Shown piece after piece: positions 26,024 to 29,771 of a stretch of DNA of 64,000 nucleotides. Each line of letters begins with the position of its first letter. The stretch's first letter is position 1. This DNA is from Escherichia phage 92CQ: sequence record PV682554.1; one strand, written 5' to 3'. The notes beneath the pieces were generated by a model. It ran no database searches, was not told the DNA's origin, and worked only from the letters and a program-made list of their open reading frames with translations. The position numbers and the translations under genes were made by a program.

Positions 26024-27139
26024 TTACTCTGCTGGTTCCCAAGTACCTGGAATCATCTTACGTACACGTACCCCAACAGGTTTAGTAGGAATACCTTCGT
26101 CTGAAAATTCTTCGTACTCTATTTCAACAAATTGACCAATAAGTGTCAAAGCATTTTCTTCTTTACGATAGTTAATGGTTTCATCTGAATCCTTACGCAT
26201 CAGGAATTCGACTACTTTACCATTTTCCATCTCGCCTGTCAATACCCCGTCACCATTTTTATCACGTTTTGCACTGACCACCTTAACTTCAAGAGTCTGC
26301 CGTGGTTTACGTTTAATAACATCATAAGAACGTTTATCAAACTCGTAAACACCTTGTGCGTTACGATACACCACGCCTTCCGCTTTTTCACGTAGAGCTT
26401 TTGCATAGAAAGCATCAAACTGCTCTTGGTTTTCAATGTATTCTGTATGTACTACACAAATGAGTTCATCTAAACCTTTATCTTCAACAACTTCTTTTAG
26501 AGCAGCTAAAACTTGAACCCTCTTCTCAAATGGTACAGATGGCACAGGAACATCATATACATAGTATTTAAGAAGCGGAGTGTTAGCGTTATGTTTTTTC
26601 CACGCACTATTAATTTGTTGAAGGCTAAGGACACCCAAGCCAGCAAAAACTTCACCGTCAAGAGGATGACCAACTACTTCTTTAATGAAGGTTGGAATTT
26701 CTTTCCAGTGAGGTGGAAGTTTATATACCTCCCCAGCTTTAGATAAACATTCACCTTGCATGTTAATCATTGAACGTAGACCATTCAATTTATACTGTGC
26801 ATAACCTGGGAACAAAACACGATCAGCATAATCTTTATAATCCTGACATTTCATGGGTGTGGAAGGAACATGGTTTTCAGCTTCCTCTTTTGTTTTATAA
26901 TACCCATTCTTAAGTTGCTTTGTCCATTTGGCAAGAGCTTCTATTTCAGCTTGTTCTTCTGCTGTTGTTTCATTTGAGCGACCAATATTTTTAGGTTCTG
27001 CTGTATAAGATTTGCTAGTAATCTTTCCACCTAATTGACCATGAGCAACAGTTACAACACTACCTTCGGTATAGACTGACCACTGTTTAATTTTACCTGT
27101 AGAAGTTTTACCATATAATGTAGGATTAGTTTGTTTCAT
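26024..27139 (-). CDS. ATP-dependent DNA ligase, putative
   Basis: Start moved to ATG 27137-27139 (MKQTNPTLYG, GGAGG RBS); motif I KLNGLR (KxDGxR-type), motif IV EGVVYR, motif V VIKRK. Confidence 0.55.
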   Translation of the reverse strand: MKQTNPTLYGKTSTGKIKQWSVYTEGSVVTVAHGQLGGKITSKSYTAEPKNIGRSNETTAEEQAEIEALAKWTKQLKNGYYKTKEEAENHVPSTPMKCQDYKDYADRVLFPGYAQYKLNGLRSMINMQGECLSKAGEVYKLPPHWKEIPTFIKEVVGHPLDGEVFAGLGVLSLQQINSAWKKHNANTPLLKYYVYDVPVPSVPFEKRVQVLAALKEVVEDKGLDELICVVHTEYIENQEQFDAFYAKALREKAEGVVYRNAQGVYEFDKRSYDVIKRKPRQTLEVKVVSAKRDKNGDGVLTGEMENGKVVEFLMRKDSDETINYRKEENALTLIGQFVEIEYEEFSDEGIPTKPVGVRVRKMIPGTWEPAE

Positions 27140-27314
27140 CTTTAACCTCCAGTTGCGAAAGAACCCATTTAGCCATTTCAATTTCACCGTGTAGTCTGCC
27201 TAGTTCATAGGCATCATCAATATTACCACCAGTGTAATCATCCACCATAAAGTAAGGATCTTCGCTACTGTTAGGTGCGTTTGCAATTCTCGTTAGTTCT
27301 TCAATAAATGTCAT
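27126..27314 (-). CDS. hypothetical protein
   Basis: Short ORF; start uncertain (MTFIEEL). Confidence 0.3.
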   Translation of the reverse strand: MTFIEELTRIANAPNSSEDPYFMVDDYTGGNIDDAYELGRLHGEIEMAKWVLSQLEVKDETN

Positions 27315-27322
27315 AGTTACCC

Positions 27323-27547
27323 TTACCAATTATACACAAGAGTTTGAATCTCTTCCATCAAGTCTTCAAGATCTGTATCAACGTATTCAGAAGATGTTGC
27401 CATAAAGTATGTAATCATTGTGAACCCTTCCGAAGAAAGGGCATCAAGGATATCATTAAACATATCTTCCATTTCAGTATTCTCACCAAATGAGAATAAC
27501 ATTTGTTGATCTTCGCTTACACCTTTAACATAGATAGCTGTACTCAT
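27323..27547 (-). CDS. hypothetical small acidic protein
   Basis: 74 aa, highly D/E-rich. Confidence 0.4.
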   Translation of the reverse strand: MSTAIYVKGVSEDQQMLFSFGENTEMEDMFNDILDALSSEGFTMITYFMATSSEYVDTDLEDLMEEIQTLVYNW

Positions 27548-27550
27548 ATA

Positions 27551-27871
27551 TTAATCCTTAAGACGTTCATTTAAATCTGCAATAACATCACCTAAATCTT
27601 CACATTCCAGTGTTAACTCTGAAACTTGTCCACTCAAATAACAAACCTCTTCATTTAGATCTGAAATAATGTTTTCTAATGAATCTACTTGGTCATCATA
27701 CGAACGTTTTGTTTCTTCAAGTTCTTCCGTAAGATCATTAATCAAACTGAGCAAAGATAAGATATAACCGTCTCCTGTCTCGTTCCTCCACTCACTTCCG
27801 TAGCGATAAATAATAATTTCACCATTATCGACTACTGTAAAATACTTACCTTCACCAGAATAAATTTCCAT
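27551..27871 (-). CDS. hypothetical acidic coiled-coil protein
   Basis: 106 aa with heptad-like LEELEETKRSYDDQVDSLENIISDLNEEV. Confidence 0.4.
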   Translation of the reverse strand: MEIYSGEGKYFTVVDNGEIIIYRYGSEWRNETGDGYILSLLSLINDLTEELEETKRSYDDQVDSLENIISDLNEEVCYLSGQVSELTLECEDLGDVIADLNERLKD

Positions 27872-27880
27872 ACGCTCTCC

Positions 27881-28285
27881 TTATTGTAGCTTAAGTGAAC
27901 TGCGAAGACGTTTCTCTTGCTGATCACGAATATGTTGTGGAACCTCATGAATTGAGTCGTTACCGTGCCTATTTTCAACAACTAAAGAGATAACTTGATA
28001 ACCAAACTCTTCAGCAAGAGTAAAATAAGGTTTAAGTTCTTTCTCTGTGGTTGAAGTGTTAGAGACAATAATCTTTTTAATATTAGATGCCATAGCATCA
28101 CGAACAATACTCTGACACCATGCGTGTGCTTTACCTACATTCTCTGGCTTCCAATCGTAAACACCACTTTCTGTGTAATGATATTGATCTGCCTCACAGA
28201 TAGGCCAATAACCTTCAGAAATAATTTCTGCTACTGTAGATTTACCTGCACCTGAAACACCACGTAAAATGATAAGTTGTTTCAT
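27881..28285 (-). CDS. polynucleotide kinase-like P-loop kinase
   Basis: MKQLIILRGVSGAGKST Walker A and IVSNTSTT, parallel to the T4 Pnk kinase domain (GCPGSGKST, IISDTNLN). Confidence 0.6.
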   Translation of the reverse strand: MKQLIILRGVSGAGKSTVAEIISEGYWPICEADQYHYTESGVYDWKPENVGKAHAWCQSIVRDAMASNIKKIIVSNTSTTEKELKPYFTLAEEFGYQVISLVVENRHGNDSIHEVPQHIRDQQEKRLRSSLKLQ

Positions 28286-29218
28286 TTAACCCCCAAAGAA
28301 GTTTTCTATTTCTTTACGTCGCTCTTGTGGATCTAGAGCAGCCCATTGAACCTTCGTAAAATTATTTCGAAGCCATTCTAGCAAAGTATAATATTCTTCG
28401 TCAACAATTTGTTTAGCATTTTTTGGGTTGTCCCAAATCATATCCCACTTCTTATTACCACCACGCATAAGGAATTTCTTAGCAAGATAGTATGGTGACT
28501 TAATCTTTAAGAGTAAGTTAAACGGATAGTTTGTTTCACGAACAACAAAGCCTTCGTGTCTACAATGTTTAGACATTTCAACAACATCTGAAAATTTAAT
28601 CATCGGATAAACTTCAGGACGTTTAAACTTTGTAACAGATGCAATCCCATCAAGAACACCTTCAGGTAACATGAAACTTGTCCCATCAAGATTTTGAATT
28701 CTTGCTCCAATTAAGTATGCGCCTGGTTCTTCTTCGACAATATGTGGATCAGAAGGATCACAGATTTCAAAAAGGAAAGTTGCTTTTGCACTTTCTGTCC
28801 ACTTAATGAAATACTCTATGTCGTCACACTCGGAAACAATACGATTCTTTGCCATAATTGCAAAATCTGATTCTAGGCTCCCTGTTGTTGATACAACAAG
28901 TTTCCCTTTGTACACACCTACAGATGCCATAAAACCGTTTACTTTACGGACAGCATCTACAAGTTCATCTGCTGGAAGATCTGTACCATTCTCAAAACGA
29001 TTAAAGATTTTAGTAAAAGGCCAAATAACAACATTGTCTTCTGAGTCAACAACCAACCCACGACAATCTAGAAGTCGTTTGTCAACGTTCCACAAATTAT
29101 CCCAGAATACATTGTTTTTGTATTTAAGTACAGCAAGACCAGCATACTCTCCAGATTTAACTTCTTTTTTATGCACTAAACCTTTTGCAATCAGGTCATC
29201 ACAATTGAACTTAGCCAC
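28286..29218 (-). CDS. RNA ligase-like nucleotidyltransferase, putative
   Basis: Motif I candidate RKVNGF (KxNG), motif IV HEGFVVRE, motif V LLLKIK; sits between kinase and phosphoesterase. Confidence 0.5.
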   Translation of the reverse strand: MAKFNCDDLIAKGLVHKKEVKSGEYAGLAVLKYKNNVFWDNLWNVDKRLLDCRGLVVDSEDNVVIWPFTKIFNRFENGTDLPADELVDAVRKVNGFMASVGVYKGKLVVSTTGSLESDFAIMAKNRIVSECDDIEYFIKWTESAKATFLFEICDPSDPHIVEEEPGAYLIGARIQNLDGTSFMLPEGVLDGIASVTKFKRPEVYPMIKFSDVVEMSKHCRHEGFVVRETNYPFNLLLKIKSPYYLAKKFLMRGGNKKWDMIWDNPKNAKQIVDEEYYTLLEWLRNNFTKVQWAALDPQERRKEIENFFGG

Positions 29219-29219
29219 C

Positions 29220-29771
29220 TTAATCTCCTTTGATTATCTTATGATGGTCTACAACAACAATATCACGTTTATCCATAATAGAGATGATTTCGTCAAAATG
29301 CAAGATTTTTCCGTGTGCATCCCAACCAACATCCAACATTTTCCCATACAAATGATCAGGGAATGATCCGTGAGAGTGTCCGTGTAGCATGATTGATCCA
29401 TGTCCTTGTTTATTCCAGGCAGCCATAGGGTAATGGCTTAAGACGAAAAACAGCTTCTGATATTTCACTTCGTCATAATAAACCACTTCTCCATACTCTG
29501 CAAGCACTTTTCTGTGTTTACTGTAATCATGGTTCCCAACACAGTAAGTAATATCCCCTTGGAGACGGGAAGCAATCTTACGGGTATCTTCTTCAGTCCC
29601 GAAACAGAAGTCCCCAAGATGGTACATCTTTACTCCTGGTGTTGTGGCACATTTATTCCATGCTTCGATCAGTGCTTCTGTCATATGCTCCATATCTTCC
29701 CACGGGCGATATTCAGGAGCAAACTCTCGGATACGTTTGTGCATAAAATGCAAATCACTTGTAATAAACAT
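29220..29771 (-). CDS. calcineurin-like metallophosphoesterase
   Basis: DLHF, GDF, GNHD and HGHSH metallophosphatase motifs. Confidence 0.7.
   Translation of the reverse strand: MFITSDLHFMHKRIREFAPEYRPWEDMEHMTEALIEAWNKCATTPGVKMYHLGDFCFGTEEDTRKIASRLQGDITYCVGNHDYSKHRKVLAEYGEVVYYDEVKYQKLFFVLSHYPMAAWNKQGHGSIMLHGHSHGSFPDHLYGKMLDVGWDAHGKILHFDEIISIMDKRDIVVVDHHKIIKGD

Follow-up and report, generated by a model that had tools for sequence, protein, structure and literature searches.

Escherichia phage 92CQ is a phi92-like E. coli myophage of the genus Justusliebigvirus (Stephanstirmvirinae). A stretch of 64,000 nucleotides from this phage (PV682554.1), referred to as the window, contains a group of genes whose products resemble enzymes of RNA repair. 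An initial annotation, made from the sequence alone, had described three adjacent minus-strand genes for a polynucleotide-kinase-like protein, an RNA-type ligase and a calcineurin-type phosphoesterase, and had proposed that their products heal and seal broken RNA. The three genes were found as described (27881-28285, 28286-29218 and 29220-29771), with all of the motifs quoted for them. However, the module extends beyond the trio: a gene for a cREC protein, a gene of the family phrog_839 and a MazG-like gene had been missed, as had a probable NARP1 operon nearby. In the order of transcription, the cassette begins with the following genes:

30286..30627, minus strand: putative cREC (cyclic-phosphate-processing receiver-like) protein (PF20274; start per Bas62 annotation), first enzyme gene of the cassette
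29771..30130, minus strand: phrog_839 protein, conserved and phage-only (PF26092 in precomputed tables)
29220..29771, minus strand: putative binuclear metallophosphoesterase, aq_1665 / Metallophos_2 branch (phrog_547, E = 4.8e-55)
28286..29218, minus strand: putative Rnl1-type ATP-dependent RNA ligase (PF09511, E = 5.4e-14)
27881..28285, minus strand: putative minimal P-loop polynucleotide 5'-kinase of 134 aa (AAA_33, E = 1.1e-9; phrog_505, 6e-9)

The trio forms a leftward, translationally coupled, operon-like unit. The phrog_839 gene overlaps the phosphoesterase gene in a TAATG sequence, the stop codon of the phosphoesterase gene is followed by the ligase start as TAA-G-GTG with an AGGAG Shine-Dalgarno sequence ahead, and the kinase start codon stands directly after the ligase stop (TAA-ATG).

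Families and catalytic residues of the cassette proteins

The ligase carries the motifs RKVNGF, HEGFVVRE and LLKIKS and matched the Pfam family PF09511 (RNA_lig_T4_1) over residues 52-244 with 53.0 bits (cut-off 28.3). As a single-sequence query against the Protein Data Bank (PDB) it gave no match at an expectation value (E) of 1 or below, and a family profile was needed. The profile, built from 26 homologues, matched T4 Rnl1 (2c5u) with an E-value of 3.1e-10, the alignment spanning the nucleotidyltransferase domain. In this alignment R53, K70, F72, K92 and G95 of the ligase pair with R54, K75, F77, K99 and G102 of T4 Rnl1, and E151, E222, G223, K238 and K240 pair with E159, E227, G228, K240 and K242. 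Apart from F72, which is nearly so, all of these ligase residues are invariant in the 26 homologues. The nucleotidyltransferase motifs I (K92/G95), III (E151), IV (E222/G223) and V (K238/K240) are all present, K92 being the predicted adenylylated lysine.

An AlphaFold2 model of the ligase reached a predicted local distance difference test score (pLDDT) of 90.6. Ranks 1-10 of a Foldseek search with this model were taken by T4 Rnl1 and the ligase domain of fungal Trl1 (E = 6e-13 to 1e-11; template modeling scores 0.60-0.66). Archaeal Rnl3-type ligases (4e-10 and weaker), Rnl2 (5e-7 and weaker) and DNA ligases (6e-5 and weaker) followed, and Rnl5 likewise ranked after T4 Rnl1 and Trl1. The middle gene of the trio is hence predicted to encode a covalent nucleotidyltransferase fold, and in the model this fold is nearest to Rnl1/Trl1 rather than to Rnl2, Rnl3, Rnl5 or DNA ligases.

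The kinase, with its motifs RGVSGAGKST and IVSNTSTT, scored 39.2 bits against AAA_33 (cut-off 27) and matched phrog_505, a family labeled 'polynucleotide kinase'. Among solved structures, a profile of 25 homologues matched Pnkp1 of the Pnkp1-Rnl-Hen1 RNA repair complex (4xrp; E = 2e-6) and, both at full length, T4 Pnk (1ltq; 1.2e-4) and the kinase of Clostridium thermocellum Pnkp (CthPnkp; 4gp7; 1.5e-4). The match to nicotinamide riboside kinase was marginal and confined to the N-terminus (E = 0.18-0.27). No variation is seen at the P-loop residues G12, G14 and K15, and position 16 has serine or threonine; the likewise invariant D33 and R106 align with the general-base aspartate D35 and with R122 of T4 Pnk, respectively.

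Most of the 150 best matches of the kinase in a library of 1.8 billion proteins stand alone and are about 135 aa long. Those that are longer comprise kinase-RNA ligase, RNA ligase-kinase, HD-kinase and kinase-CNPase proteins as well as one N4BP2-like protein, and the fused forms with RNA_lig_T4_1, HD or CNPase partners were matched with E-values of 1e-39 to 1e-45. These fusions are the strongest evidence for assigning the kinase to the polynucleotide-kinase clade, where Pnkp1, T4 Pnk and the CthPnkp kinase are nearest. Since its relatives are fused to RNA-end enzymes, the protein is not an unrelated nucleotide kinase.

The phosphoesterase carries SDLHF, LGDF, GNHD and HGHSH. Of the domain searches that the initial annotation had put forward as a check, those against PF09511 and AAA_33 passed their cut-offs with scores far above chance, whereas Metallophos_2 fell short with 21.1 bits (cut-off 27). 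A profile of 16 diverse members matched Aquifex aq_1665 (PDB 1xm7; 7e-23) and the phosphodiesterase MJ0936 (4e-3); neither the CthPnkp phosphatase (4j6o) nor lambda phosphatase (1g5b) was matched at E <= 0.01. The residues D6, H8, D54, N80, H81, H113, H132 and H134 are 97-100% conserved in 66 sequences and invariant in the 16 diverse ones, and the dinuclear metal site is complete. A calcineurin-type phosphatase as in bacterial Pnkp, as had been proposed, is thus borne out for the superfamily and the metal ligands but not for the subtype, which is that of aq_1665 and not of Pnkp or lambda phosphatase. The protein is the predicted 3'-end healing enzyme and would take off a 2',3'-cyclic or a 3'-phosphate.

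Some phosphoesterase genes bear the label 'MutT/nudix' (L006:8751-9323, L007:8488-9129 and phage vB_vPM_PD06, MH816848), and Nudix features are absent from their products. When a 'Nudix' protein of Vibrio phage VPG01 served as seed, exactly the same open reading frames (ORFs) were retrieved as with the phosphoesterase; the label is hence a mis-annotation.

The cREC gene sits three genes upstream of the ligase gene. Its product matched PF20274 (cREC_REC) with an E-value of 3e-14 and 53.9 bits (cut-off 27), and its 10 orthologues show little or no variation at the receiver-type acidic residues D19, D20, D60 and D62, at T95/S96 and at K103 (numbering on the 124-aa ORF). A sequence search for a solved cREC relative found none. 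The domain was defined by Aravind's group, who predicted that it opens 2',3'-cyclic phosphates of RNA or 1''-2'' cyclic ADP-ribose phosphate. The 92CQ protein is likewise a predicted 2',3'-cyclic phosphodiesterase. The phrog_839 protein, between cREC and the phosphoesterase, has 119 aa, of which 24 are invariant; RH, QGF and RNG are among these, as is SEGLY at the C-terminus. Its predicted model is confident, yet no solved structure with a similar fold was found. One record labels the protein 'anti-restriction nuclease', without visible basis.

Linkage of the genes in phages and fusions in bacteria

The region 26024-30700 is 98.8% identical to Escherichia phage EC_OE_11 (OQ108497.1), the closest complete genome, with matching coordinates, and 96-98% identical to about 50 further Justusliebigvirus genomes. 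Hundreds of sequenced phages have the cassette, with hosts in the genera Escherichia, Klebsiella, Pseudomonas, Vibrio, Acinetobacter and Aeromonas, and more distant relatives of it occur in Streptomyces phages; the ligase was found in 694 records. Public labels vary. In the BASEL phage JohannJBalmer (Bas62) the trio is annotated as 'polynucleotide kinase', 'RNA ligase' and 'putative phosphoesterase', adjoining an 'ATP-dependent DNA ligase', and other GenBank records give 'ATPase', 'RNA ligase and tail fiber protein attachment catalyst' and 'phosphohydrolase (MutT/nudix family protein)'.

Linkage was scored in a sample of 70 IMG/VR loci, collected with the ligase profile, together with phage records; ORFs were called and searched with profiles of the components. 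Clustering of the ligases at 80% identity yielded 55 lineages, which reach down to 24% identity to the 92CQ ligase. The following genes were counted near the ligase:

Phosphoesterase: 52/55 lineages; at a distance of at most 1.5 kb, 48/55
Kinase: 51/55 lineages; at a distance of at most 1.5 kb, 49/55
Nampt-like gene (10 kb): 30/55 lineages
DNA ligase (10 kb): 26/55 lineages
Phosphoribosyl pyrophosphate (PRPP)-synthetase-like gene (10 kb): 22/55 lineages
Macro protein: 15/55 lineages
HD protein: 12/55 lineages
MazG: 8/55 lineages, all enterobacterial
Sirtuin: 7/55 lineages
cREC: 6/55 lineages
phrog_839 protein: 2/55 lineages

From the kinase and phosphoesterase counts, the three-gene core is almost obligate, whereas the remaining genes were added in particular lineages; a sirtuin, cREC and a Macro phosphatase are linked to the core in some of them. 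Counted by locus, a DNA ligase lies within 2 kb of the RNA ligase in 26/79, and at least three tRNA genes lie within 10 kb in 36/79, with 29/79 having none.

Cellular relatives were searched in one genome per prokaryotic species. Leptolyngbyaceae (cyanobacteria) and Cardiobacteriaceae have members of the ligase clade, at 31-35% identity, and are the only groups in which fused forms of the cassette activities occur. In Leptolyngbyaceae, a single protein of 712 aa combines, in this order, an AAA_33 kinase, a Metallophos and an RNA_lig_T4_1 domain. Its kinase matches the CthPnkp kinase (4gp6) at 3.5e-11 and its phosphatase 4j6o at 2.5e-24. The protein looks like a variant of Pnkp with a different ligase module. 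An example is encoded at L099:6768-8906 in Leptolyngbya sp. PCC 7375, and about 28 further cyanobacterial loci were collected (L081-L112). Hen1 was not seen at the single cyanobacterial fusion locus examined. In Cardiobacteriaceae a kinase-ligase fusion is followed by a phosphoesterase of the 92CQ type. Such natural fusions independently indicate a common substrate for the three activities. RtcB lies a short way downstream of the cyanobacterial fusion in at least 11 loci, a neighbor that points to RNA as this substrate.

Genomic surroundings and proposed function of the cassette

Around the trio, the window contains the following further features:

27551-27871, 27323-27547 and 27126-27314, minus strand: three small ORFs (phrog_18076, phrog_16431 and phrog_24346)
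26024..27139, minus strand: ATP-dependent DNA ligase (PF01068, E = 8.2e-11; phrog_114, 3e-75)
Between the DNA ligase and the MazG-like gene, minus strand: small ORF
25103..25825, minus strand: MazG-like (PRA-PH) nucleotide pyrophosphohydrolase (PF01503, E = 3.2e-7; phrog_671, 5.9e-28)
25071-25096, both strands: terminator-like hairpin, directly after the MazG-like gene
32651..35349, plus strand: PRPP-synthetase-like and Nampt-like pair (homology to Bas63_0079 and Bas63_0080)
36097..38873, plus strand: cluster of 17 tRNA genes (ARAGORN, Rfam)

The DNA ligase had been placed about 700 bp upstream of the trio. A ligase with the motif KLNGLR does lie 741 bp from the kinase gene, but it is downstream by transcription, and 'upstream' holds only in plus-strand coordinates. 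Its ORF spans 26024-27187 and likely starts at the ATG at 27139, as in Bas62, not at the GTG at 27187. The protein matched DNA_ligase_A_M with 42.4 bits (cut-off 26.2), and its nearest solved structures are the DNA ligase of African swine fever virus (6imj; 2.7e-7) and a Lig E-type enzyme (4d05; 4.5e-7). K133 and E179 do not vary, and at least 95% of the sequences retain R138, E270, G271, K292 and K294. Most simply, this is the replicative ligase of a DNA-metabolism block, and belongs to the context of the cassette rather than to its proven members.

The three small ORFs (27126-27871) occur only in 6 near-identical loci and are specific to Justusliebigvirus. They fill the slot in which Phapecoctavirus-like relatives have a sirtuin (SIR2) gene; derivation from a decayed sirtuin was ruled out, as neither tblastn nor hidden Markov model (HMM) searches revealed similarity. 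The MazG-like gene is the last of the leftward unit and is followed by the GC-rich hairpin AAGCCCCCGAAGGGGCTT at 25071-25096 and then by T-runs, which together read as a terminator on both strands. The hairpin probably ends the unit that bears the cassette. A scan of 24.8-32.7 kb for promoters and terminators gave 30 and 5 hits, against 27.5 +/- 5.7 and 3.7 +/- 1.9 in shuffled sequence, i.e. no excess, and of its results this hairpin alone is worth noting.

The surrounding genes encode exonucleases, an RdgC-like protein, thymidylate synthase and ribonucleotide reductase. The sign of the GC skew flips at about 32 kb, from negative leftward to positive rightward. This coincides with the divergent junction (~32000-32650) between the leftward early and DNA-metabolism genes and the rightward NAD+, tRNA and structural genes.

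Divergently from the cassette runs the pair at 32651-35349, which GenBank labels as PRPP synthetase and nicotinamide phosphoribosyltransferase. Its products are 36% identical to Bas63_0079 (E = 2e-43) and 39% identical to Bas63_0080 (E = 7e-136). In Bas63, a Felixounavirus and the model phage of NARP1, these two proteins are the enzymes Adps and Namat, which regenerate NAD+ out of ADP-ribose plus nicotinamide and allow the phage to overcome the defense Sir2-HerA (Osterman et al., 10.1101/2024.02.11.579819). The 92CQ pair is a probable NARP1 operon, and is called no more than probable because identity to the Bas63 proteins is just 36-39%. No NMNAT is annotated near the pair. Where the pair occurs in Pakpunavirus and in Vibrio phages, it is followed by a Macro protein that corresponds to the Adpp phosphatase of the NARP1 work. 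NARP3 was considered as an identity for the cassette and ruled out, as it consists of PnuC and NadR. Bas63 also has a 'polynucleotide kinase' (L116:30555-31250) about 5 kb downstream of Adps and Namat, a further case of an RNA-end enzyme near NARP1.

The tRNA cluster had been counted as 18 genes, and 17 were found: ARAGORN reported 16 in 36097-38873, and Rfam 15, one of which, at 36372-36450, is additional. Two ARAGORN genes, tRNA-Met (36097-36172) and tRNA-Ser(UGA) (36517-36606), fall under the Rfam threshold. The cluster is encoded on the opposite strand, beyond the divergent NAD+ operon, and its start is 6.3 kb away from the phosphoesterase gene. It includes Lys-UUU, Tyr, Asn, Gln, Thr, Pro, Phe, Gly, Ile, Leu (x2), Met (x2) and Ser (x3), with two copies each of tRNA-Ser(GCU) and tRNA-Met. 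These were called as ordinary tRNA genes in which neither program flagged introns.

We consider it likely that the cassette constitutes a split heal-and-seal pathway of RNA repair. The logic of healing and sealing, already put forward in the initial annotation, is well supported because of the near-obligate linkage in 55 ligase lineages and the natural fusions of kinase, phosphoesterase and ligase in cyanobacteria. A metal-independent RNase of the host, for example a HEPN-type anticodon nuclease like PrrC or RloC, would cut RNA and leave 2',3'-cyclic-phosphate and 5'-OH ends. The phosphoesterase, possibly with the help of cREC, would open and strip the cyclic phosphate, giving a 3'-OH, and the 134-aa kinase would move a phosphate from an NTP onto the 5'-OH. 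The Rnl1-type ligase, adenylylated on K92, would then activate the 5'-phosphate and seal the break. On this reading, breaks in tRNA anticodons would be the most likely substrate. Protein families, folds, catalytic residues, gene coupling, co-occurrence and fusions were established here, and from them the enzymatic activities, the sequence of events, RNA or tRNA as substrate and the role in counter-defense are inferred. The adjoining probable counter-defense operon fits a counter-defense role of the cassette, and raises a possible biochemical link through NAD+.

Several observations weigh against a pathway of this kind. In the T4 literature, R54, K75, F77 and K119 of Rnl1 were found by mutation to be essential; at the position of K119 the ligase family has an invariant threonine, T112. 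The part of the ligase beyond the nucleotidyltransferase domain is helical (242-310) and has about 65 residues, compared with about 120 in T4 Rnl1, and with this region so short the tRNA specificity of the T4 Rnl1 C-terminal domain is not transferable. The kinase profile reached no more than modest E-values against polynucleotide kinases of solved structure (2e-6 to 1.5e-4). Two arginines with functional roles in T4 Pnk, R38 and R126, correspond to H36 and D110, arginine not being aligned. The phosphoesterase belongs, by its profile matches, to the aq_1665 / MJ0936 branch, distinct from the Pnkp phosphatase, a branch that is not known to act on RNA ends. Searches of the literature for experiments on this ligase clade, or on a role in counter-defense, brought up neither enzymatic nor genetic results, and Stephanstirmvirinae are still sensitive to at least one tRNA-cutting defense, the retron Eco2 (PMC12916289).

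That the core so often lies near a NARP1-like pair may also mean that RNA repair and NAD+ metabolism form one coupled pathway, rather than a mere co-location of early genes, although we regard this as unlikely. Such a pathway would pass through a yeast-like 2'-phosphate intermediate. The phosphate would be transferred to NAD+, giving ADP-ribose cyclic phosphate, which would be converted to ADP-ribose by cREC, Macro or the phosphoesterase and from there to NAD+ by NARP1. If true, RNA repair and the reconstitution of NAD+ would feed each other in hosts that cut tRNA and deplete NAD+.

It is rather improbable that the cassette repairs DNA ends, the kinase and phosphoesterase cleaning nicks of host nucleases (5'-OH, 3'-phosphate) for sealing by the DNA ligase or by the 'RNA' ligase, as one part of the replication and recombination block around them. 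The cassette is set among the exonuclease, RdgC-like, thymidylate synthase and ribonucleotide reductase genes, a DNA ligase is near in 26/55 lineages and 26/79 loci at the distances given above, and both T4 Pnkp and bacterial Pnkp act on DNA ends too. However, in more than half of the lineages the DNA ligase is missing from the flanks, while kinase and phosphoesterase almost always adjoin the RNA ligase. Moreover, the nearest relatives of this ligase by sequence and fold are tRNA and RNA ligases, DNA ligases ranking far lower, and the cyanobacterial fusions adjoin RtcB, an RNA ligase.

A housekeeping role in RNA processing, such as the maturation or recycling of transcripts from the phage's own 17-gene tRNA cluster or of other phage RNAs, has a similarly low probability. 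Trl1 uses the same enzyme logic in fungal tRNA splicing, its ligase domain is as close as T4 Rnl1, and at least three tRNA genes accompany the ligase in 36/79 loci. Against this stand the 29/79 loci with no tRNA gene within 10 kb, and the ordinary nature of the tRNA genes in 92CQ, for which introns were not flagged. In addition, the sole precedent known to us for a phage pair of Pnk and Rnl1, that of T4, is one of counter-defense.

An accessory function for NAD+ and ADP-ribose is very improbable. Here phosphoesterase and cREC would serve the NARP1 enzymes by recycling ADP-ribose cyclic phosphate or ADP-ribose-1''-phosphate, and kinase and adenylyltransferase would act on nicotinamide riboside and small nucleotides like nicotinamide mononucleotide. 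The RNA ligase has an Adps/Namat-like pair, or the Nampt-like gene of one, at no more than 10 kb in 22 to 30 of the 55 lineages and a Macro (Adpp-like) gene at this range in 15. The Macro protein Adpp is a proven NARP1 accessory, ADP-ribose cyclic phosphate builds up as a by-product of NARP1 (10.1101/2024.02.11.579819), and the prediction for cREC covers 1''-2'' cyclic ADP-ribose phosphate besides RNA ends. Yet the trio lacks flanking Adps/Namat in 25/55 lineages, kinase and ligase relatives are fused to each other and to HD, CNPase and Pnkp-type phosphatase domains, with RtcB adjoining, nicotinamide riboside kinase matches the kinase profile marginally, and the known NARP pathways require none of the cassette proteins.

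Comparison with known RNA repair systems

A sirtuin-centered, NAD+-using RNA repair neighborhood was predicted computationally in phage V5 and Proteus phage Mydo (Iyer et al. 2022, Viruses 14:1977, PMC9503650). With this rV5-type neighborhood, 92CQ shares orthologous families of a T4-like tRNA ligase, cREC, a nucleotide kinase, a MazG-like pyrophosphatase and a calcineurin-like phosphoesterase, all five within 25103-30627. The rV5-like phage MaxBurger and Phapecoctavirus-like contigs were checked directly and have this layout. The two differ in that the neighborhood has its sirtuin inside, between kinase and DNA ligase in sister phages, whereas neither tblastn nor a sirtuin HMM revealed a sirtuin anywhere in the 64-kb window (best E = 0.25-0.36). 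In EC_OE_11 (OQ108497.1) an orthologous sirtuin, which matches the rV5/Phapecoctavirus sirtuin profile at 1e-124, is encoded at 142646-143458, unlinked to the cassette. The same record has a Macro-domain protein at ~96463-97305, and both are far from the cassette and outside the window. In 92CQ there is the additional phrog_839 gene, and the phosphoesterase, described as 'occasional' by Iyer et al., was found in 52/55 ligase lineages. The 92CQ cassette is a member of this neighborhood, in a form with an unlinked sirtuin.

The cassette is thus real and coherent, and it is essentially known, because its sequences are public and annotated and the prediction has been published (Iyer et al. 2022). 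This analysis adds the near-obligate three-gene core, the frequent 'MutT/Nudix' mislabel, the cyanobacterial fusions, often near RtcB, and the frequent NARP1-like linkage. The presence of the cassette in the BASEL collection phages Bas62 and Bas54 makes it easy to put to the test.

Defenses that cut tRNA or other RNAs are common in bacteria and include PrrC, RloC, Cas13, PARIS, retrons and HEPN systems. The Pnkp and Rnl1 of T4 are a countermeasure to the anticodon nuclease PrrC, and this unlinked pair is, to our knowledge, the only experimentally established repair answer of a phage. The cassette would represent a compact, operon-encoded alternative to it. Both have a ligase of the same family, a P-loop kinase of one clade with its general-base aspartate, and the logic of healing and then sealing. 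In T4 Pnk, however, the kinase is fused to a HAD (DxDxT) phosphatase, whereas the 92CQ kinase is a stand-alone protein of 134 aa without HAD, and 3'-end healing is assigned to a separate metallophosphoesterase and cREC. The T4 genes are unlinked, while those of 92CQ are contiguous and translationally coupled. The 92CQ ligase is also shorter than T4 Rnl1 after the nucleotidyltransferase domain and has a threonine in place of K119.

With bacterial Pnkp (C. thermocellum Pnkp/Hen1; Pnkp1-Rnl-Hen1) the cassette shares the triad of kinase, calcineurin-superfamily phosphoesterase and ligase. Bacterial Pnkp is one polypeptide with three domains, whereas 92CQ has three ORFs with their own starts and stops. 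The phosphoesterase of Pnkp is lambda-phosphatase-like and that of 92CQ is assigned to the aq_1665 branch. The ligases differ as well, no chain described as a Pnkp ligase being among the top 50 fold matches of the Rnl1/Trl1-type ligase of 92CQ. A Hen1-like methyltransferase domain was found in none of the ten ORFs tested at 25.1-30.7 kb.

The fungal and plant enzyme Trl1, in which ligase, kinase and cyclic phosphodiesterase (CPD) are joined, also has a P-loop kinase, and its ligase domain is as close to that of 92CQ as is T4 Rnl1 (E about 1e-12). Where Trl1 uses a 2H-type CPD on the cyclic phosphate, 92CQ has cREC. Trl1 is a single protein that works with Tpt1, whereas the cassette consists of separate proteins without a 2H domain and without Tpt1/KptA, and the sirtuin proposed as an analogue of Tpt1/KptA is unlinked. 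The metallophosphoesterase, capable of acting as a phosphomonoesterase, suggests that 92CQ would remove the phosphate completely rather than form a 2'-phosphate junction. Taken together, the cassette would work like T4 Pnkp/Rnl1 and bacterial Pnkp and belongs to neither architecture.

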